Shown: positions 2,054-27,951, counted from the first letter of the stretch. The stretch: 64,000 nt of DNA from Candidatus Collierbacteria bacterium GW2011_GWA2_42_17 (GCA_000998275.1 LCDA01000001.1:116352-180351), one strand, 5' to 3'. The notes: a model not told the origin generated them from the letters alone. Translations and numbers: made by a program.

Positions 2054-4009
2054 ATGTGGAGCGTCGATCTGACAACAATCCTCAAAACCTACATCATCAG
2101 CCTTGGCTTACAGTTTTTGATCTGGCCTTTAATCAAAAAGTATTTTTCTAAACTACCGGATCAGGGTTGGGCTTTGGGTAGAGTACTTATCACCCTGATG
2201 GCAGCTCTTTTGATTTGGCAGTTGAGTTACCTGGGAATTGCGGAAAATAATAACGGGAAACTATTCGCAATTTTAGCTTTATTTGGTCTTTTAAGCCTGT
2301 GGCAGATTATTACTCATGGGGTAAAGGCATTCACTGTGGCAAAAACGACGGCTAAAATAATCGCCATTGAAGAGTATCTTTTTTTGGTCGGGTTTGGGGT
2401 GATGGCTTTGATTCGAGCACATGCACCGAGTTTGGATAGCCTGGAAAAATTTATGGATTTTGGTTTTCTGAAGCAGTATTTATTGTCACCTACCTTACCG
2501 GCTCCGGATATGTGGCAGGCTGGACAGACAATTAATTACTACTCTTTTGGACATTTTTGGGCAAGTATTTGGTTAAGAATTTGGGGAGTAGCACCGGCGG
2601 TGGGTTACAACTTGATGTTAGCCTTTATCTTTGGTACTTCGATGAGTTTGGTATTTTTAGTATGTGTAACACTCGCGGGAAACAAAAGTTCTAAAGCGGC
2701 GACATTCGGGGGAATAATTGGTGCCTTGGGAGTGATGGTGGCCGGAAACAGTCATGTAATCTGGTATCTAATTAAGAACAGGAGCCTTGATAATTATTGG
2801 TATGCTGAAGCCACTAGATTCATCCACAATACCATTCATGAGTTTCCCAGTTATAGTTTTGTGGTTTCCGATTTGCATGGTCATGTACTAGATTTACCGA
2901 TTATTCTGACTTTTTTAGTAGTACTGTTTTCCTGGGTTGAAAATAAAAAAAGGGTTTATGAGATAGCGATAGGAGTATTGTTTGGAGTGATGATGATGAC
3001 CAACACCTGGGATGTGGCGGTTTATGGTTTGGTACTTTTGGTTTTGGGGGTACAGATGGTCGTAGCGGACATCGGGGAATTAAAAAAACTTTTGAAAACG
3101 GTGGGGGTAATGTTTGTGTCGTTTTTGTTGGTGGCTTTACCCTGGTGGTTGTCGTTTAGTTCGATTTCAAGTGGGGTGGAGGTAGTAACAGAAAGATCTC
3201 CTTTTTGGCAGTTATTGGTACTGTGGAGCGGAGGACTGGTTATTAATATTCTAGCGGTGATTATTGAAGGAAGAGGTGAGAAAAAAATAGTTATTCGAAC
3301 ACTGGCTCTAAGCGCCGTATTTCTGATTGCAATTCCGGAGTTTGTTTTTGCTCGAGACATTTACCCAAATCATCCAAGGGCAAATACCATGTTTAAACTA
3401 ACTTATCAGGCTTTTATTCTGATGGGGATTTTGTTGGGGGTCACTTTTGGAAGTTTATTAGATAGGGGTAGAAAAATTGTTCTGGGCTTGAGGGTCGTGG
3501 CAATATTTATTATTTTCTTTATCTTTGTGGGGACGATGAACTTCTCGTTTATAGCTTTCACCACTTACTATGGTGGTTTTTCAAATTATTATGGTTTGGA
3601 TGGTGAAAAATGGATGCAAACCAAAGTCCCGGAAAATTATGGAGCAGTGAAATACTTGAGGAAAAATATGAACGGAAAAAATATGGTTGAAGCAGTTGGT
3701 GATAGCTATACCCTATTTAATGTAGTGTCGGTATTTTCCGGAGTGCCGACGATTCAGGGTTGGCGGGTACACGAATGGTTATGGAGAGGTGGTTATAGCA
3801 TGGTGGCTTCCCGAGAAGCCGAGGTGAGAGAAATATATCAAGGAGTGAGTATTGAAAAAACAAAAGAAATACTTGATAAATACAACATTGGCTGGATATT
3901 GGTAGGTCTCGACGAAAAAATAACCTACAAGATTAATGAAGAAAAAATATGGCAACTGGGGGAGATGGTTTGGGAAGAAGGTGATACTTACTTAATTAAA
4001 GTCGAATAG
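2054..4009 (+). CDS. Large polytopic integral membrane protein with more than 10 predicted transmembrane helices and a C-terminal soluble domain. It may be a GT-C-like glycosyltransferase or a polymer-handling protein.
   Basis: Hydrophobic helices run along the first ~480 aa and the last ~170 aa are hydrophilic. The gene is translationally coupled to the upstream flavoenzyme, with the stop and start 1 nt apart. Confidence 0.35.
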   Translation: MWSVDLTTILKTYIISLGLQFLIWPLIKKYFSKLPDQGWALGRVLITLMAALLIWQLSYLGIAENNNGKLFAILALFGLLSLWQIITHGVKAFTVAKTTAKIIAIEEYLFLVGFGVMALIRAHAPSLDSLEKFMDFGFLKQYLLSPTLPAPDMWQAGQTINYYSFGHFWASIWLRIWGVAPAVGYNLMLAFIFGTSMSLVFLVCVTLAGNKSSKAATFGGIIGALGVMVAGNSHVIWYLIKNRSLDNYWYAEATRFIHNTIHEFPSYSFVVSDLHGHVLDLPIILTFLVVLFSWVENKKRVYEIAIGVLFGVMMMTNTWDVAVYGLVLLVLGVQMVVADIGELKKLLKTVGVMFVSFLLVALPWWLSFSSISSGVEVVTERSPFWQLLVLWSGGLVINILAVIIEGRGEKKIVIRTLALSAVFLIAIPEFVFARDIYPNHPRANTMFKLTYQAFILMGILLGVTFGSLLDRGRKIVLGLRVVAIFIIFFIFVGTMNFSFIAFTTYYGGFSNYYGLDGEKWMQTKVPENYGAVKYLRKNMNGKNMVEAVGDSYTLFNVVSVFSGVPTIQGWRVHEWLWRGGYSMVASREAEVREIYQGVSIEKTKEILDKYNIGWILVGLDEKITYKINEEKIWQLGEMVWEEGDTYLIKVE

Positions 4010-5080
4010 CTATTGCTTGCCCTTGAGAAGATTGTCCAGATATTTTTTTAGAGCAGACCAGTTGTTATCTTTGGGAATGAGGACCCACTCACCCTTGAAC
4101 TGATTAACGGGCGGATTATATAGAATGGTGATGCCGTTTTCATCCGGCTGGTCGGAAAAAGTAACCGATTTCACCGGATTATTTCTAGTATCGAGAGCAA
4201 TTTTAGCCAAAGTTGGATAAAGCTCACTACCCAGATTGGTGATGAGATTACGATTGAGAATCTCGAAGAAGACATCAAGCTTGTTTTTGTCCAGGAGAAA
4301 GGCAGGGGTGAGTATTTTTTGACGAAGGGCGGAGATGACTGACTGTTGACGACGAGAACGGGCAAAATCGGTGCCTTCGTCCCCTGTCGAGTGACGGGAG
4401 CGGACAAATTTGAGGGCCATTTCGCCATTTAGATGAGCCGAGCCGGTGGCAAAAGTTATGGTTTCATATCTATCAGAGATAGGTATCGCATTTTCCTTGC
4501 CGAGAATAGGAAATTCAGTGTCGGAGAACCCTGGATTAATATCAACGTCAATGCCACCAAGGAGATCAATCGTTTCCTTAAAAATGGTGAAGTTTATTAT
4601 GGCGGTGTAATGAATCGGGATACCTAGATCTTCGAGAATAGCAGCTTCGGACATTTGAATTCCGGCAGGGGGGTCCTTTTGTTCACCGTAGTAATAGGCG
4701 GTGTTTATTTTTGCTTGAAGTGAGGGTACCCAAAGATCGCGAGGGACACTAATCATGGTTGGAGTTTTGGTTTCATGATTGTAGGAAATGACGATGATAG
4801 TGTCGGCAAGATTTGGTGAGTCAGTGCCTTCACCCCTAATGCCGAGAATTAAAAAATTAGTAATTCCATTGGTATTGTCGAGATTTTCTACCGGTGTTCC
4901 AAAAAAACTTAAAAGGTCTTGGGGGTTAAGGTGAAATCTTGAGAGAAGGCTTAGCCCTTGTGCGCCTAAAAATCCCAGTCCGACAATAAAGAGAGAGGTA
5001 AAAATAATTACGAGATGACGTCTGACAAAGGAAACGAAGCGAATGAGAACTCTGGCAGGTCTGATGTGGGCTAATTTCAT
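4010..5080 (-). CDS. LytR-CpsA-Psr (LCP) family cell-wall glycopolymer phosphotransferase.
   Basis: It has an N-terminal transmembrane anchor followed by the LCP core, with NFLILGIRGEG...DTIIVISYNHETKTPTMISVPRDLWV matching the conserved LLGSD...DT...L....SIPRD signature. Confidence 0.75.
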   Translation of the reverse strand: MKLAHIRPARVLIRFVSFVRRHLVIIFTSLFIVGLGFLGAQGLSLLSRFHLNPQDLLSFFGTPVENLDNTNGITNFLILGIRGEGTDSPNLADTIIVISYNHETKTPTMISVPRDLWVPSLQAKINTAYYYGEQKDPPAGIQMSEAAILEDLGIPIHYTAIINFTIFKETIDLLGGIDVDINPGFSDTEFPILGKENAIPISDRYETITFATGSAHLNGEMALKFVRSRHSTGDEGTDFARSRRQQSVISALRQKILTPAFLLDKNKLDVFFEILNRNLITNLGSELYPTLAKIALDTRNNPVKSVTFSDQPDENGITILYNPPVNQFKGEWVLIPKDNNWSALKKYLDNLLKGKQ

Positions 5081-5773
5081 TTAGATAAGACTGTTGATGA
5101 TTCCGGCAAAAAGAGTTGGCTCAAGGCTATCGGTACCAACCAGGACTCCGTCGATGCGACTTTGATCTACAAAAGATTTGACGTTGTCGGCGGTGACCGA
5201 ACCACCATAGAGAACTGGGGCGACATTGTCCAGTAGAAAACCAATCTGGTTGGTGGTGTGGTTGGCTTCGACTGGATCCAGGGGGTGGCCAGTACCAATA
5301 GCGGCGATTGGTTCATAGACAAAGAAACAACGGGAAACGTCGATGTTGTTCTGAAAAAGTTCTTTTATTTGTTCATCCAGGTATGGTAGATCAAGACAAA
5401 CTATGGGAGTGATGGAGTTTTCCAGAAGAAGCTTGGCTTTTTCGGCTACCATCTGGCTTGTCTCGTTAAAATCACGGCGACGCTCCGAGTGTCCAACGAT
5501 ACAGTAGCTGACAAGTTCTCCAAGCATGTTGGCGGTAATTTCGCCGGTATGTTTTCCGGGAGCAAGATGGGAAACGTCTTGGGCACCGGTGATAATAGGG
5601 ATATTAAGATCGGCAATTTTATGATTAAAAGCGGCGATGTCGGTGAAGGGAAGGCAAAGAATAATGGCGATATCGGCAGGAAATTTTGGCTTAAGGGCAT
5701 GAATCCCATCAATCCAAATTAAGGACTCGGTGAGATTCTGATTACTTTTCCAGTTGCCAATAACGTACTTCAT
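5081..5773 (-). CDS. tpiA: Triosephosphate isomerase.
   Basis: The sequence MKYVIGNWKSN matches the GNWKMN motif, and VGHSERR and other catalytic-loop motifs are present. The likely ATG is at 5771-5773; the ORF track extends to an upstream alternative start at 5785. Confidence 0.85.
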   Translation of the reverse strand: MKYVIGNWKSNQNLTESLIWIDGIHALKPKFPADIAIILCLPFTDIAAFNHKIADLNIPIITGAQDVSHLAPGKHTGEITANMLGELVSYCIVGHSERRRDFNETSQMVAEKAKLLLENSITPIVCLDLPYLDEQIKELFQNNIDVSRCFFVYEPIAAIGTGHPLDPVEANHTTNQIGFLLDNVAPVLYGGSVTADNVKSFVDQSRIDGVLVGTDSLEPTLFAGIINSLI

Positions 5774-5818: not shown

Positions 5819-7735
5819 ATGGATGATTTTTTAAAAGGACTAAACGAAGAACAAAGGGAGGCGGTGACTTATGGAAAAGGGCCGCTTTTGATTTTGGCGG
5901 GTGCTGGTTCTGGAAAAACGAGGGTGTTGACGTACAGAACAACGTATCTAATCAAAAAAATGGGAATTGGTCCGGAAAAAGTTGCCTTACTGACTTTTAC
6001 AAATAAAGCGGCTGAAGAGATGAGACAAAGGGTAAAAAATTTGGGTGGAGAAGCTGGGTCATTGGGTTTTGCGGGGACATTTCACACTTTTTGTGCCAAA
6101 TTATTGCGAGAATATGGTCAAAATGTGGCGGTAATGCCAAATTACGTCATCTTTGATAGCGACGACTCCGAAGCGGTGATGAAAAAAGTGCTTAAGGAGA
6201 TGGGTATTGATCCAAAGGAATCAAAACCCGGAATGTTTTTGGCTGTGATTAGTAGAATGAAGAATGATTTGGTGAGTGTGACCGAAGCAGAAACTAAAGC
6301 GAGTGATTATTTTCGCCGATTAGTGGTGAAGATATGGAAAGCCTATCAGGACAAACTGAAGAAAAATAATGCGGTAGATTTTGATGATCTAGTGGTTAAG
6401 GCTGTAGAACTTTTGAAAATCAACCGGATCAGAGAAGAGATAAATGAAAAACTGGAATGGATTTTGGTAGATGAGTATCAAGACACCAACAGAGCACAGT
6501 TTGAGATAACCAGACTACTGGCGGGAAAAAAACAAAATATTACGGCTGTGGGGGACGCTGCCCAGGCGATTTATTCTTTCCGCGGAGCTGATTACCGAAA
6601 CCTGGTTTTGTTTAAGACAGAGTATCCAAAGGCAGCAATGGTAAATCTACCGATGAACTATCGAAGTACTCAAAATATTCTGGATACCGCCTATGGGGTG
6701 ATCAGTCATAACACTACGCACCCCACTTTACATTTGGAAACAGTAGAGGGATCGGGTGAGATGGTGAATTTTTTTGAGGCGGGAGACGAACGGGATGAGG
6801 CAAAATATATCGTAGAACAAGGGCGAAAAACAGCGGAAGAAGATGGCGCCGTAGCAATACTTTACCGAACAAATGCTCAGTCACGTGCCTTTGAGGACGA
6901 GTTGATGCGACGAGATATTCCCTACAAACTAGTGGGGGGTTTACGATTTTATAACCGAGCCGAAATTAAAGATCTAGTTGCCTATTTACGGGTACTGAAT
7001 AATCCGAAAGAAGAAATTAGTCGGATAAGAATTGAAAAACTAGGGAAAAGAAGAGCCGAGGTTTTTGATAAATGGCTTGAGCAAAAAACAGATGATGAGA
7101 AACAAGAAAATCCGGGAAGGCTCTTGGAGGAGATTATTAATGTCGTTGGTTTCTTGGAAAGATTTGACGAACGGGATGAGGACGATGCGGCACGAATTGA
7201 AAACATCAATGAACTCTTGGCCGTGGCGTCGGACTACAAAAGTGTGGAGAAATTTTTGGAGAGTGCGGCCTTGTCTGAGTCGGAGATTAAACAACATAAA
7301 TCAAACGCGAAAATTACGCTGATGACAGTGCATGCCGCTAAGGGACTGGAGTTTGAAAACGTGTTTGTGGTGGGACTAGAAGAAGGATTATTCCCCCATT
7401 CACGATCGATGCTTTCCGGAGAGAAAGAGGAAATTGAAGAGGAGCGACGTCTTATTTATGTAGCGATGACACGAGCAAAAAGAAGGCTAACTTTATCTTG
7501 GGCACGAAATAGACTAGTTTTTGGTGGGCGTCATTCTTCGATACCGTCAAGATTTTTGTCCGAAGTTCCGGAGCGACTGTTAAAAAAGGTGGGTGGGGTG
7601 CAGGAAGTCGAGAGAAAAATGTCTAAACCTTTAGCAGAGATTGATGAGTTTGGAGAGAAGAAAAGAATTATTGTCCAAGACTGGGAGATAGCAGAGGCAA
7701 CCAAAGATGATTTTGCCGAGATTGATAATTGGTAG
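5819..7735 (+). CDS. pcrA: UvrD/PcrA-family ATP-dependent DNA helicase.
   Basis: The N-terminus LNEEQREAV...ILAGAGSGKTRVLTYR carries the Walker A motif, DEYQDTN is motif II, and VHAAKGLEFENVF belongs to motif VI. The probable start is the ATG at 5819 (MDDFLKGLNEEQ); the ORF track begins at a TTG at 5777. Confidence 0.85.
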   Translation: MDDFLKGLNEEQREAVTYGKGPLLILAGAGSGKTRVLTYRTTYLIKKMGIGPEKVALLTFTNKAAEEMRQRVKNLGGEAGSLGFAGTFHTFCAKLLREYGQNVAVMPNYVIFDSDDSEAVMKKVLKEMGIDPKESKPGMFLAVISRMKNDLVSVTEAETKASDYFRRLVVKIWKAYQDKLKKNNAVDFDDLVVKAVELLKINRIREEINEKLEWILVDEYQDTNRAQFEITRLLAGKKQNITAVGDAAQAIYSFRGADYRNLVLFKTEYPKAAMVNLPMNYRSTQNILDTAYGVISHNTTHPTLHLETVEGSGEMVNFFEAGDERDEAKYIVEQGRKTAEEDGAVAILYRTNAQSRAFEDELMRRDIPYKLVGGLRFYNRAEIKDLVAYLRVLNNPKEEISRIRIEKLGKRRAEVFDKWLEQKTDDEKQENPGRLLEEIINVVGFLERFDERDEDDAARIENINELLAVASDYKSVEKFLESAALSESEIKQHKSNAKITLMTVHAAKGLEFENVFVVGLEEGLFPHSRSMLSGEKEEIEEERRLIYVAMTRAKRRLTLSWARNRLVFGGRHSSIPSRFLSEVPERLLKKVGGVQEVERKMSKPLAEIDEFGEKKRIIVQDWEIAEATKDDFAEIDNW

Positions 7736-25041: not shown

Positions 25042-25929
25042 TTACTTAACCAACTTGGCGTAAGTAGAGGAGACAAAGCCCCAAGAGCCTTTGGTATATT
25101 CAATTTGATACCAACCGGAGTTTGTGGATTCTTTGTAGGGGAAAATGTCACCAGGATTGACTTTGGCGAGCTCGTTGCTTCCGGTTGAGGCTGTTTCACG
25201 AACCTTTAACCAGCCTGTTGGAGTTGAAAGAATCTCGACATAGGGCTTGGCAAGGGTTGCTGAGGAAGTTGCTTGTTTGGGAAGAGGAGTAACTGTTTTG
25301 GCGGGTGTGGGGGTGACAAGACCTGCCGAGGGAGTAGCACTGCCAATAGTAGGTGTAGGTGTGGGAGTAATATCGAGAGCAGACATGGTGAAGTTTAAAA
25401 CCAAACGATATCCAGCCTGAACCGAAGCATTAACTATTTTGTCTTGATAACCTGGGTTGGTAAAAGTGAAGACGTGGGGCCCCGGTTCAATATCAATACT
25501 CCTGGGGGAAAAACCCTCGGGCTTGCCGTCGATACTTATTGTGGCACTGGCGGGAAGACTAACAATACTAACTGCGGCAGCTTTATTGTTACTGAGTTTT
25601 TCAAAGGAAAGAGTATAGCTGTGAGATTTGTCCAGAGTTTCACCAAACTCACGATGAACGGTAGTTAGGGCGCCGCCAAGAAGGTCAGCTTTGGTTTCCC
25701 AGGTTTGACCACTATCAACAGCCGTCATTTGGATGGTGTAGGAGCCTGGTTTTTTGTTATCGATGTATACAGGAGTTTTGCCGACAGATTCTCCGTTTAT
25801 CAGGACATTAGCTTCGGGACTAGAGGTAACTTGGATACCGGCTTTTTTGGCGAAGGGGTTAAGATTGCACCCGGCAAGAAAAACGGAAAAAATAAGGATA
25901 GCAGAGAGCTTGAGTAAGTTTGTCTTCAT
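25042..25929 (-). CDS. Lipoprotein with a PEGA domain, a Thr/Pro-rich linker and a C-terminal bacterial SH3-like domain.
   Basis: The lipobox is LAGC. The PEGA-type beta domain reads TSSPEANVLINGESVGKTP. A TPTPTPT linker precedes the C-terminal region WLKVRETASTGSNELAKVNPGDIF...WYQIEY, which is SH3b-like. Confidence 0.55.
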   Translation of the reverse strand: MKTNLLKLSAILIFSVFLAGCNLNPFAKKAGIQVTSSPEANVLINGESVGKTPVYIDNKKPGSYTIQMTAVDSGQTWETKADLLGGALTTVHREFGETLDKSHSYTLSFEKLSNNKAAAVSIVSLPASATISIDGKPEGFSPRSIDIEPGPHVFTFTNPGYQDKIVNASVQAGYRLVLNFTMSALDITPTPTPTIGSATPSAGLVTPTPAKTVTPLPKQATSSATLAKPYVEILSTPTGWLKVRETASTGSNELAKVNPGDIFPYKESTNSGWYQIEYTKGSWGFVSSTYAKLVK

Positions 25930-25978
25930 TTGTGTCTATGATAGCAGATTATGTCAAGATGTCGAACACAAGATATTG

Positions 25979-26050
25979 AGGCCGGAGAGGGAATCGAACC
26001 CTCGCATGGCGGTTTTGCAGACCGCATCGTTACCACTTCGACATCCGGCC
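25979..26050 (-). tRNA. tRNA-Cys with anticodon GCA.
   Basis: The 72-nt minus-strand sequence has a 7-bp acceptor stem GGCCGGA/TCCGGCC. The anticodon stem GCGGT/ACCGC encloses the loop CTGCAAA, giving anticodon GCA. The T-arm is GAGGG-TTCGATT-CCCTC with discriminator U. CCA is not encoded. Confidence 0.85.
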
Positions 26051-26119
26051 ACTTCAGGCACTATTTTACCATTTATGAGAAGGATTAATTTAATGGTTGT
26101 TTTCTGATGATATTTATTA

Positions 26120-26148
26120 TTGACTTTTGGGTTTTATTTGGTAATAAT
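26120..26148 (+). promoter_or_regulatory. Sigma-70-like promoter candidate, TTGACT-17nt-AATAAT, upstream of the homing-endonuclease ORF.
   Basis: The hexamers and 17-nt spacing were read directly from the sequence, about 80 nt upstream of the ATG at 26228. Confidence 0.3.
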
Positions 26149-26227
26149 TAATTGTGGAAAGAGACAAAAGAGGTGGATATAACAGGAAAAAGATTAATGA
26201 AATTTTTTTAAAGTATGGTCTCCTTCC

Positions 26228-26860
26228 ATGGCTTACGTCTTAGGCTTTATTTATGCCGATGGAGCCGTGGAGGATTGTAGAAAGTCATCAAGAACTTGTT
26301 ATCTTTGTCTTTCAAATAATGACCTTGATATTCTGAGGGATATTTTATGGGTAATGTCAACTAAGCAAACTATTGTAATTCGAGGTCCTCGAGTCATGAA
26401 AATTGACGATAGAGAGTATTGGTGTAAAACAAATTATTATGTGAGAATTGGGAACAAAGTAATTTATGATGATTTGACTAAACTCGGATTATGCCCCAGA
26501 AAGTCATTGGTAATCGAGTTGCCCGAAATACCCAACGAATTCTTCAGTTATTTTCTGAGAGGATATTTTGATAGTGATGGTTGTATCCATATTGAAAATA
26601 TAAGACGACGCTTAAAGATAATATTCACAAGTGGAAGTAGGAGTTTTCTGGAGAAACTCGGAACATATATTGGCCGTTTAGTAAGCGAGCGACATGTTCC
26701 TATATATACTAATCGTAGATCGTTTCAACTTAGTTACGGAGGAAATTGTGCAAAAAATGTTGCAGCATTGATTTATCAAGATATCGTTTCTGCCCCATAT
26801 TTGAAGTACAAATATGAGAAATATACTAATTATTTATCCACTAAAAAAGTGACTGTTTAA
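26228..26860 (+). mobile_element. Free-standing LAGLIDADG-family homing endonuclease ORF carrying two LAGLIDADG motifs.
   Basis: The two motifs are LGFIYADGAV and LRGYFDSDGCI. The ORF is markedly AT-richer than the flanking gap and tRNA genes. It lies between tRNA-Cys and gap, and no intron or intein context is visible. Confidence 0.7.
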
Positions 26861-26865
26861 GTAAC

Positions 26866-27951
26866 TTAGTAGAGATCGCCGGCTTTGATGACTTCCTCAA
26901 CAAGACGATTGGCATAGCCCCATTCATTGTCGTACCAAGCGAGAACTTTCACCAGAGTACCGTCGACGACACGGGTCATTTCGAGATCAACAATGCTAGA
27001 TTCCGGACGGCCAACGATATCAGAAGAGACTAATGGTTCGTCAGTCACGGCTAAAATACCACGGTATCTAGGGTCATTGGCGGCATCCATAAAAATTTGG
27101 TTTATTTCTTCGACGGAAGTGGAGCGCCGAGTAATAAAGGTAAAGTCGGTAATGGAACCAGTGATGACGGGAACACGAAGGGAGATGCCATCAAAAAGCC
27201 CTTGGAGTTCGGGAATAGCTTGAGTGGCAGCAATGGCAGCTCCGGTAGAAGTAGGCACAATATTTTGAGCGGCGGCACGAGCGCGGCGAAGATCACGATG
27301 AGAGTTATCTTGAAGATTTTGATCGTCGGTGTAGCCATGCACTGTAGTGAGCATGGCCTTGAGAATGCCAATCTTGGAGTGAAGGATATCAGCTACGGGG
27401 GCAACACTGTTGGTAGTACACGAAGCATTGCTAATCACAGAAAGTGTGCCGGTGCGATCTTTGGTGATGACGTCTTGGTCGTTGACGCCTAAAACAGCCG
27501 TAGGTACACCTCCGCCCTTGGCAGGAGCGGAAAGAACAACAAATCTGGCACCCCCCTGAAGATGAAGAATGGCTTTGTCCAGGCTCGTAAAAGCTCCCGT
27601 AGACTCGATGACGACCTCGACACCGAACTGAACCCAGGGAATCTTAGCTGGGTCTCGTTGGGCAAGGACGGGGATTTTAAGAGTTTTTTTAGGATGTTCA
27701 ATAGTGATGTAGCCAATGATTGGTTTGGCGTCCGTGGCTTCTTTGGGATCTTGAACTTCCTCAGAAGAGATGGAGTAGGGAAGGGTGCCGTAGGCAGTGT
27801 CGTGACGGAGAAGATAAGCCCAGCCGGCAACGTTTTGCGAACCGGAAGTATTAATAGCGACGAGATTGGCGTCGTCAAGGTGATTATGTAACCAAACACG
27901 CATAGCGGAGCGTCCGATCCTTCCGAAACCATTAATCGAAAAGTTAACCAT
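26866..27951 (-). CDS. gap: Glyceraldehyde-3-phosphate dehydrogenase.
   Basis: The N-terminus reads INGFGRIGR, and the active-site region SNASCTTNSVAP is present with the catalytic Cys. Confidence 0.9.
   Translation of the reverse strand: MVNFSINGFGRIGRSAMRVWLHNHLDDANLVAINTSGSQNVAGWAYLLRHDTAYGTLPYSISSEEVQDPKEATDAKPIIGYITIEHPKKTLKIPVLAQRDPAKIPWVQFGVEVVIESTGAFTSLDKAILHLQGGARFVVLSAPAKGGGVPTAVLGVNDQDVITKDRTGTLSVISNASCTTNSVAPVADILHSKIGILKAMLTTVHGYTDDQNLQDNSHRDLRRARAAAQNIVPTSTGAAIAATQAIPELQGLFDGISLRVPVITGSITDFTFITRRSTSVEEINQIFMDAANDPRYRGILAVTDEPLVSSDIVGRPESSIVDLEMTRVVDGTLVKVLAWYDNEWGYANRLVEEVIKAGDLY

Follow-up and report, generated by a model that had tools for sequence, protein, structure and literature searches.

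Background

What is a gene with the marks of a homing endonuclease doing on its own beside a tRNA gene in a bacterial chromosome, and is it still at work there? The question is raised by a locus of Candidatus Collierbacteria bacterium GW2011_GWA2_42_17, carried by a stretch of 64,000 nucleotides (GCA_000998275.1 LCDA01000001.1:116352-180351) that we analysed as a whole and call the window, all coordinates being counted from its first letter. Homing endonucleases are mostly known from introns and inteins, or as free-standing genes of phages and organelles; here the setting is cellular and phylum-wide, and the niche is the flank of tRNA genes. The answer that we favour, and consider probable, is that positions 26154-26860 (plus strand) hold a free-standing homing endonuclease gene with its own promoter, which would practise intronless homing directed at a tRNA gene and whose copy in the window is decaying.

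Results

The gene product and its surroundings

The gene and its immediate neighbour comprise the following features:

25978..26050, minus strand: tRNA-Cys(GCA), intact, with a U73 discriminator (73 nt by ARAGORN; 25979-26050, 72 nt, 62 bits by Rfam)
26063..26068, minus strand: candidate -10 box TAAAAT of the tRNA-Cys promoter, of putative function, within the conserved block GGCACTATTTTAYCAT
26228..26860, plus strand: LAGLIDADG ORF as called, 210 aa (ORF call, Pfam, alignment, tblastn, AlphaFold2, Foldseek)
26240-26269, plus strand: LAGLIDADG motif 1, LGFIYADGAV, aa 5-14, catalytic Asp D11
26555-26587, plus strand: LAGLIDADG motif 2, LRGYFDSDGCI, aa 110-120, catalytic Asp D117

The two canonical motifs had already been recognised by a sequence-only reading of this locus, and a profile search bears them out, the ORF matching Pfam LAGLIDADG_3 (PF14528) in two stretches at 44.8 bits against a cut-off of 22.5 (E=1.5e-11). 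Neither D11 nor D117 varies among the 24 homologues of the family alignment, and the 210-codon frame keeps both catalytic motifs, with no internal stop and no further indel. An AlphaFold2 model of the product, built on 24 homologues (pLDDT 81.6, pTM 0.79), has two alpha-beta-beta-alpha-beta-beta-alpha halves arranged as a pseudo-dimer, with the secondary structure H-E-E-H-E-E-E-E-H occurring twice. When this model was compared with the PDB by Foldseek, the top 50 matches were all LAGLIDADG proteins (TM 0.45-0.62, E 1e-8 to 1e-5), including I-Tsp061I, the bI3 maturase, the TliVMA intein endonuclease, I-AniI, I-DmoI and I-SceI; a phmmer search of the PDB with the sequence of the product gave no match. 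Motifs, profile and model together show the predicted product of the window gene to be a LAGLIDADG endonuclease of the single-chain type, with two motifs and the catalytic Asp of each. Site-specific, Mg-dependent cleavage leaving 4-nt 3' overhangs is a trait of the superfamily and, by analogy, a putative property of this enzyme. The exact protein is present at NCBI as [quoted passage not shown].

The endonuclease gene sits between the divergently transcribed tRNA-Cys gene, only 103 nt from its start codon, and the 3' end of a GAPDH gene, whose convergent stop codon (26866-26868, minus strand) is 5 nt from its own. The tRNA-Cys is intact, as had been stated from the sequence, and the GGCACTATTTTAYCAT block in front of it is kept in all syntenic alleles that share the tRNA orientation of the window, including two that are described below, the gene-less L163 and the deletion stump of L167. 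The ORF is indeed AT-richer than its surroundings: its GC content of 0.344 is the lowest among the 48 ORFs of at least 150 aa in the window (mean 0.424, sd 0.027, z=-2.9), its GC3 is 0.284 (z=-2.45), and composition along the window is not uniform, with only 1.5% of 633-nt windows reaching so low a GC content.

The view that the gene lies outside any intron or intein also stands. Rfam detected no group I intron and no other RNA family besides tRNA in 25800-27000, even at E<=10; ARAGORN found no intron-bearing or split tRNA when introns of up to 1500 nt were allowed; and there was neither a Hint or intein match in Pfam nor an extein sequence at the ORF. No recombinase ORF is present in the insert of about 740 nt that contains the gene, and no att-like repeats or tRNA-Cys fragments were found flanking the gene or elsewhere in the window. 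These searches show that the predicted gene of the window is free-standing, outside intron and intein alike.

The start of the gene and a one-nucleotide deletion

Upstream of the called ORF, four further features have to be considered:

26120..26148, plus strand: sigma-70-type promoter of the endonuclease gene, TTGACT-N17-(T)AATAAT (consensus scan, 10/12 positions)
26154..26243, plus strand: ancestral 5' end of the gene, with a GTG start, codons 1-16 VERDKRGGYNRKKINE matching the N-terminus of the family, then out-of-frame IFLKYGLLPWLTS and a stop
26199..26203, plus strand: frameshift site, one A missing (GAAAAT to GAAAT) against all aligned relatives (DNA alignments)
26204..26210, plus strand: slippery heptamer T_TTT_TTA in the GTG frame, where, speculatively, a -1 slip would give the full-length protein

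The promoter, which had been proposed from its consensus, is nearly invariant among relatives, with at most 2 mismatches in four of the five that have the same arrangement (in L002 after a 1-nt offset), and it is also retained in L167, L170 and L171; it is weaker in L005 and L006, with 6-7 mismatches out of 29. Compared with the sister genome L001 it diverges by 8.8%, inside an otherwise divergent patch. Because the -10 box ends 5 nt before GTG 26154, the endonuclease mRNA is probably leaderless or nearly so.

In the protein alignment, most homologues are 232-240 aa long and start with M-E-R-D-K-R-G-G-Y-N-R-K-K-I-N-E-D-F-F-K-x-W-S-P-K, followed by an invariant M-A-Y-V-L-G-F. When the homologue P0002 was used as a tblastn query, its residues 1-20 mapped to 26154-26213 and its residues 17-229 to 26201-26839 in another frame; the in-frame family homology of the main ORF starts at 26201 (NFFKVWSPS-MAY...), and the GTG frame closes at TAG 26241-26243, forming an upstream ORF of 29 codons. 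Judging from these alignments, ATG 26228 is not the ancestral start, and the called ORF is the 3' 210 codons of a predicted 236-codon gene beginning at GTG 26154, in other words the tail of a FRAMESHIFTED gene. The frame at 26228-26860 thus exists as first read, and it was mistaken for the full gene; the 210-aa "hypothetical protein" of the annotation covers no more than the end of a frameshifted gene with a GTG start. As the alignments show, the 1-nt deletion, in codon 17, cuts the start codon off from the 26 conserved residues of the N-terminus, among them the FFxxW motif common to the family. Since the N(E)xFFxxW segment, just before helix 1, is kept in nearly all of the 80 relatives examined, a product begun at ATG 26228 would be deprived of a conserved part.

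The sequence at the frameshift is identical, base for base, in two independent JGI assemblies (L168, L169), which shows the deletion to be real and fixed in this population; the protein of the frameshifted allele is indexed in 83 blocks of the sequence collection. In-frame leaders of the ordinary kind are present in the closest relatives, L170 (79% identity) and L171, whose short gene calls reflect a mere choice of ATG over GTG as start. A separate 1-nt deletion is present in L003, upstream, at A_AAA_AAA followed by TAA. Given the in-frame leaders of L170 and L171, the deletions of the window and of L003 read as homopolymer mutations, that is, as early decay; programmed -1 frameshifting was also considered and judged unlikely, the frameshift being absent from these two closest relatives. 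The window copy is therefore probably impaired, as far as can be read from its frame, and with its frameshift it may do nothing at present.

A family that adjoins tRNA genes

By scanning a single genome for each GTDB species with patterns we obtained at least 453 related loci, of which the best 80 (31-67% identity) were studied; as these were fetched by motif patterns (RGYFDGDG), decayed copies are under-sampled among them. Apart from two with the label Candidatus Omnitrophota (L029, L038), almost all bear the label of a CPR/Patescibacteria metagenome-assembled genome or are plainly mislabelled ones. In a representative library the family, which is large and specific to Patescibacteria, amounts to 1,446 clusters at 50% identity (E<=1e-10), so that the statement that free-standing LAGLIDADG genes are uncommon in bacteria does not hold in this phylum.

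The gene abuts a tRNA gene in 78 of the 80 best loci (Cys 58, Asp 19, Met only 1; ARAGORN together with an nhmmer tRNA-Cys profile), and the two others end at contig ends. At five of the 19 tRNA-Asp loci the tRNA-Asp is split by a group I intron of 196-227 nt that default ARAGORN misses (in L070, Rfam Intron_gpI gives 41 bits, E=1e-8). Six loci had at first been scored as exceptions with no tRNA; four of them proved to contain an intron-split tRNA-Asp and the other two are those at contig ends. Adjacency to a tRNA gene is a rule of the family, not a coincidence of one locus, and while the window locus is an ordinary, slightly broken member, this rule is the interesting part.

A neighbour-joining tree divides the family into three clades that track tRNA type and arrangement. 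In the Asp clade the gene lies between tRNA-Met and tRNA-Asp, and the ORF overlaps the tRNA in 9 of 12 tRNA-Asp loci. In the Microgenomates clade it follows tRNA-Cys, the -35 box starting 2-15 nt past the 3' end of the tRNA, and the divergent arrangement seen in the window is that of a derived subclade. In the third, large clade (Cys-C) the gene is upstream of tRNA-Cys, usually followed by tRNA-Leu(UAA), an arrangement that we take to resemble the glyW-cysT-leuZ operon of E. coli. No stop codon precedes the tRNA in 33 of 46 Cys-C ORFs; these run 7-77 nt into it (median 18 nt), and the remaining ORFs stop 0-12 nt short of it. By and large, the endonuclease clades agree with the division of hosts into superphyla (Microgenomates versus Parcubacteria), which implies that the gene has long been passed on vertically and would also fit some benefit to the host.

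Occupied, empty and deleted alleles

To look at the locus independently of its content, we collected eight syntenic relatives through homologues of the neighbouring PEGA/SH3 lipoprotein, without selecting for the endonuclease gene, and compared the slot that separates the GAPDH stop from the start of the lipoprotein gene. An intact endonuclease gene is found in L164. In L163, L166 and the P0156 contig, tRNA-Cys is the sole content of the slot, and the spacers measure 125-196 nt (a 72-nt spacer is also given for L163); tRNA-Cys is accompanied by a small membrane ORF in L162 and L165, and in L161 the slot contains an ORF of 332 aa that matches HEPN weakly. L167 has a deletion stump, in which the promoter, start codon GTG and 31 initial codons are joined to the GAPDH stop. 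The gene is thus absent or deleted in seven of the eight, and, with the window, L001-4, L014, L164, L170 and L171 as occupied slots, the locus proves to be polymorphic among syntenic relatives, being occupied, empty or reduced to a stump. The gene thus behaves as a mobile, selfish element.

The allele of L163 contains no interrupted gene, and the extra DNA of the window relative to it, about 740 nt, corresponds to the promoter and the ORF; the insertion beside tRNA-Cys that had been proposed is supported. The L163 spacer is itself scar-like, keeping the promoter piece TGGCTTTTGGGT and an A-rich piece that resembles the 3' end of the ORF. A never-invaded target with the tRNA orientation of the window was not seen among these alleles, L163 and L167 both looking like deletion scars, and a GAPDH-based metagenome scan for empty alleles returned only relatives at 58-60% with no tRNA-Cys nearby. 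The endonuclease alleles found at the same position in relatives are only 58-67% identical. The idea of a recent acquisition is therefore right as to the foreign composition of the gene, and is better replaced, in view of these divergent alleles and deletion scars, by allele replacement in a slot that has long been occupied.

Allele replacement and turnover of tRNA-Cys

Comparison with the sister genome L001 delimits one more feature:

26008..26865, no strand: divergent, replaced patch comprising tRNA-Cys positions 8-43, the spacer and the endonuclease gene, its right edge being the GAPDH stop

Identity in a sliding window falls to 0.45-0.78 inside the patch and is 0.85-1.0 outside it, with sharp boundaries. 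The flanking proteins of L001 are 95-97% identical to those of the window and its endonuclease 64%. By the Nei-Gojobori method, four flanking genes have a pS of 0.38-0.39 with dN/dS of 0.03-0.07, and the endonuclease gene has a saturated pS of 0.75 with a pN of 0.24. Saturation set against flanks at 0.38-0.39 implies that the two alleles are much older than the split of their hosts. Neutral decay since that split was considered as a source of the 36% DNA divergence from L001 and is ruled out by the saturated pS, by a pN lower than pS and by the intact ORFs. These substitution patterns show the window and L001 alleles to have been kept, as estimated from the two sequences, under purifying selection, and on the same estimates the allele has been replaced in at least one of the two lineages.

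The patch extends into the tRNA gene. At tRNA-Cys positions 8-43 (nt 26008-26043), 13 of 36 nucleotides differ from L001, with stems compensated, and none of 30 differ in the 3' part; this divergence of 36% is the same as that of the endonuclease gene, against about 11% in flanking coding sequence (Fisher p=8e-5). Between L003 and L167, whose contigs are 93% identical overall and whose sequences are 84-100% identical over 400 nt on each side of the locus, the body of tRNA-Cys alone has been swapped (79% identity), the adjoining promoters being 98-100% identical. The orientation of tRNA-Cys flips among syntenic genomes, and in L001 the endonuclease stop codon is immediately followed by part of a second tRNA-Cys, its 3' half, beginning at the anticodon loop. 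The body swap, the flips and this remnant make the tRNA-Cys gene a recombination hot spot, and its pattern of divergence is consistent with co-conversion, as far as alignment can tell. A simple model in which resistant tRNA alleles exclude the endonuclease was rejected, because tRNA-Cys sequences are not sorted by presence or absence of the gene: L166, without it, and L004 and L014, with it, have essentially one tRNA-Cys sequence.

Discussion

Alternative explanations

Could the gene have been domesticated for a host role linked to the tRNA operon (for instance as a DNA-binding regulator of tRNA transcription, or as an RNA-processing or maturase-like factor), and be retained vertically instead of homing? 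Such a role would be in keeping with the near-universal intactness of the sampled genes, with a placement next to tRNA genes that very distant Patescibacteria share, with clades that roughly match host groups, with the many members in which ORF and tRNA must form one transcript, and with CPR genomes being streamlined and purging junk. The sampled loci, however, had been picked by an intact motif, and in the relatives collected without that selection the gene is missing or deleted in all but one of eight. The frameshifts of the window and of L003, the low GC content and the saturated synonymous sites (flanks pS 0.39) also speak against it, as does the invariance of both catalytic Asp residues, which domesticated LAGLIDADG proteins (WhiA, many maturases) typically lose. 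We regard domestication as quite improbable. Still less credible, to the point that we hardly entertain it, is the idea of a larger integrative element with tRNA-Cys as attachment site and the ORF as its cargo, or of an ORF left over from an intron or intein. It is true that tRNA genes are classic integration sites, that the slot carries other cargo in some relatives (the 332-aa ORF of L161 with its weak HEPN match, the small membrane ORFs of L162 and L165) and that UniRef names the protein "Intein-containing"; but the extra DNA relative to L163 is limited to promoter and ORF, about 740 nt, with neither an integrase nor a flanking att-type repeat, and the ORF, bounded by its promoter and by the convergent GAPDH stop, is accompanied by no ribozyme, Hint domain or extein.

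A different matter is whether the window copy, despite its frameshift, is still a working endonuclease. It could be made by reinitiation, as the 210-aa product, given that the upstream ORF of 29 codons stops 13 nt after ATG 26228, or by a slip at the T_TTT_TTA heptamer (26204-26210), in which case the low level of the slip product would curb a toxic nuclease in the manner of a built-in throttle. In favour of one or the other route, the 210-codon frame has remained free of stops and indels with both catalytic motifs, the frameshifted allele is fixed in independent samples and its protein occurs in the 83 collection blocks, the heptamer lies exactly where a -1 shift restores the family length and the FFKxW motif, and L003 has its own deletion at A_AAA_AAA. 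Homopolymers, though, are mutation hot spots and slippery by nature, so that such a coincidence is to be expected; the leaders of L170 and L171 are in frame, so that the shift is private and recent; no Shine-Dalgarno sequence can be read upstream of ATG 26228; and the short product would be missing the N(E)xFFxxW segment. We think a working copy rather unlikely, and return to our preferred reading, that of a tRNA-targeted homing endonuclease gene whose copy in the window is decaying.

A possible mechanism of homing

Under this preferred reading, the enzyme would break both DNA strands, at the tRNA gene or next to it, in alleles without the endonuclease gene, and recombinational repair from an occupied allele would copy the gene together with adjacent tRNA sequence, that is, intronless homing with co-conversion; spread between cells would probably occur by DNA uptake. 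The DNA recognised may lie at or inside the adjacent tRNA gene, whose sequence is conserved across many hosts, and targeting conserved sequence is the usual strategy of homing endonucleases. The islands of tRNA divergence, the break of the L001 remnant at the anticodon loop and the zero-spacer junctions between ORF and tRNA point to a target at the D-arm or anticodon arm, or at the tRNA boundary. A simple form of this mechanism is opposed by three results given above: tRNA sequences unsorted by presence of the gene, a set of alleles in which no never-invaded target with the tRNA orientation of the window was seen, and endonuclease clades that broadly match host groups and so point to long vertical persistence. 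The window copy would probably be in the early degeneration phase of the homing cycle, either inactive or made at a low level, via reinitiation at ATG 26228 or ribosome slippage.

Taking all parts together, we offer, tentatively and as something to which we would not yet give even chances, a broader reading: a phylum-wide guild of free-standing LAGLIDADG endonucleases that would use tRNA genes as a niche for homing. The DNA recognised by a given clade would be that of a single tRNA gene (Cys, Asp, possibly Leu), with the site probably near the anticodon arm or at the edge of the gene. With flush insertion, and the ORF often ending in the tRNA, expression would be tied to transcription of the tRNA operon and to RNase P processing; the endonucleases would drive, as an arms race, an unusually fast, compensated turnover of tRNA gene sequence, and the Asp clade might mobilise ORF-less group I introns in trans.

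Comparison with known systems

The nearest precedent for a free-standing endonuclease among tRNA genes is SegB of phage T4, which resides in the phage tRNA cluster, has a 27-bp site that includes the T-psi-C motif, and drives inheritance of the surrounding tRNA genes (PMC2330249). Like SegB (and others of the SegF/SegG/MobE type), the window gene is free-standing and adjoins a tRNA gene, and the neighbouring arm of tRNA-Cys has diverged equally; a break in the allele without the gene, with co-conversion of neighbouring tRNA sequence, belongs to the SegB system and would apply by extension to the window family. SegB, by contrast, is a GIY-YIG enzyme of a virulent phage and spreads in mixed infections, whereas the window family is of the LAGLIDADG type, belongs to cellular CPR chromosomes, is known here from sequence, and stands flush with one particular tRNA gene, the ORF often ending inside it.

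As to the protein itself, the window product resembles I-DmoI, I-Tsp061I and the endonuclease domains of the PI-PfuI and TliVMA inteins in its size class (about 200-240 aa) and in having two motifs per chain, each with a catalytic Asp, and it shares with the I-DmoI/I-Tsp061I group a predicted alpha-beta-beta-alpha-beta-beta-alpha pseudo-dimer fold. Those enzymes are encoded in rRNA introns or inteins, while the window gene is intergenic, is only 12-19% identical to them, and belongs to a family with an extra conserved N-terminal N(E)xFFxxW segment. The "collaborative homing" reportedly described by Zeng, Bonocora and Shub in 2009 for the free-standing F-CphI, beside a psbA intron of cyanophages, may be a parallel for the five tRNA-Asp loci (of 19) at which the tRNA-Asp immediately downstream of the endonuclease gene is interrupted by a group I intron without an ORF; unlike F-CphI, the tRNA-Cys locus of the window has no intron.

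Within the CPR, LAGLIDADG endonucleases such as I-ShaI are known inside 16S and 23S rRNA genes, often in group I introns (PMC11270868). The window family is of the same phylum and superfamily, and its putative targets are likewise regions of highly conserved RNA genes; unlike I-ShaI, it lies outside the tRNA genes and, in the tRNA-Cys clades, is free of introns. The account of the rRNA insertions leaves tRNA unmentioned (PMC11270868). Group I tRNA introns have recently been reported in Patescibacteria and are of the same class as the intron of the split tRNA-Asp genes here, the survey listing few intron-encoded endonucleases and none of the kind of the window family (PMC13011429). In the open-access literature we found no published account of tRNA-flanking, free-standing LAGLIDADG genes in CPR, and the tRNA-flanking family is apparently undescribed so far.

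Conclusions

If these enzymes do cut in or beside tRNA genes, their activity would explain why tRNA-Cys differs between near-identical CPR genomes, and their presence would be a marker of gene flow, by DNA uptake and recombination, among uncultivated, ultra-small bacteria. It would also represent a new coupling of the expression of a selfish gene to tRNA processing, and the family would provide many natural meganuclease scaffolds with predictable, conserved targets.

Variation around tRNA-Cys

The orientation of tRNA-Cys flips among close syntenic genomes when the relatives found through the lipoprotein (L161-L167) are compared with the window (25930-26865): it lies on the lipoprotein strand in the window, the family loci L001-L004, L163, L165 and L167, and opposite to that strand in L161, L162, L164 and L166. 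Its place between the GAPDH stop and the lipoprotein start varies as well. At L161, in a close relative, the slot occupied in the window by the endonuclease gene instead contains an ORF of 332 aa (2825-3823) that is read from the other strand, with a weak RiboL-PSP HEPN match (E=8e-5) that falls under the Pfam cut-off.

Partial copies of tRNA-Cys are found as well. In the sister genome (L001), the 3' half of a second tRNA-Cys (5632-5680), extending from the anticodon loop through the acceptor end, lies immediately 3' of the endonuclease stop codon, in the same orientation as the endonuclease gene. The full tRNA-Cys is upstream on the other strand. Homology of the half copy stops at the anticodon loop's 5' edge. 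At L165, 19 nt of the tRNA-Cys 3' end (GAGGCCGGAGAGGGAATCG) are repeated about 125 nt away from the full gene, and the DNA between them includes a T-loop-like GTTCGATTCCCGG. This has the look of a scar left by an old insertion or duplication.

L165: about 2806-2960 (locus coordinates), stretch with the tRNA-Cys 3'-end copy, next to tRNA-Cys 2733-2805 on its lipoprotein-proximal side

Reading frames and promoter element

Besides that of the window, a second endonuclease gene of this clade is frameshifted, that of L003, where an independent 1-nt deletion in the A-run of the leader (4930-4945) gives AGA AAA AAA TAA. The promoter-like element (TTGACTTTTGGGATTTGTTTGGTATAATT) occurs a second time at L006:7856-7884, where the gene downstream is an unrelated one. 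Strong promoters in these bacteria may have the TTTTGGG..TTTGG spacer as a general trait.

In the members whose gene lies upstream of the tRNA (among L009-L080), most ORFs have no stop ahead of the tRNA, and the stop falls in its acceptor or D-arm, often as TAA/TAG in the D-arm or D-loop. Cutting of the ORF-tRNA co-transcript by RNase P would then produce a non-stop mRNA.

Examples of ORF-tRNA overlap
L036:5655-5672
L013:5660-5666
L067:5334-5343

Introns, repeats and a second LAGLIDADG ORF

At the loci listed below, the tRNA-Asp(GTC) gene directly downstream of a free-standing LAGLIDADG gene is split in the anticodon loop by a group I intron that is 196-227 nt long and ORF-less, a layout that resembles "collaborative homing". 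These split genes were detected neither by default ARAGORN nor by Rfam at the gathering threshold.

Split tRNA-Asp(GTC)
L061:5649-5919
L069:2015-2305
L070:758-1046
L073:4081-4383
L079:5611-5881

With introns allowed, ARAGORN predicts additional intron-containing tRNAs (Phe, Met, Arg-GCG) in the retrieved Patescibacteria loci.

Predicted intron-containing tRNAs
L022:493-815
L071:4068-4366 and 6459-6723
L074:7042-7298
L076:3396-3768

The tRNA-Asp 3' end also recurs as exact direct repeats of 18-19 nt, 130-200 nt downstream of the tRNA, which are att-like.

tRNA-Asp 3'-end repeats
L029:7141-7158
L038:7157-7174
L067:5610-5628
L074:5838-5856

Finally, L040 contains a second LAGLIDADG ORF (3651-4343; motif LRGLIDGDG), which ends about 10 nt short of tRNA-Leu (4353-4438), and its position between this tRNA and tRNA-Cys (3204-3279) suggests that more tRNA-specific subfamilies exist.
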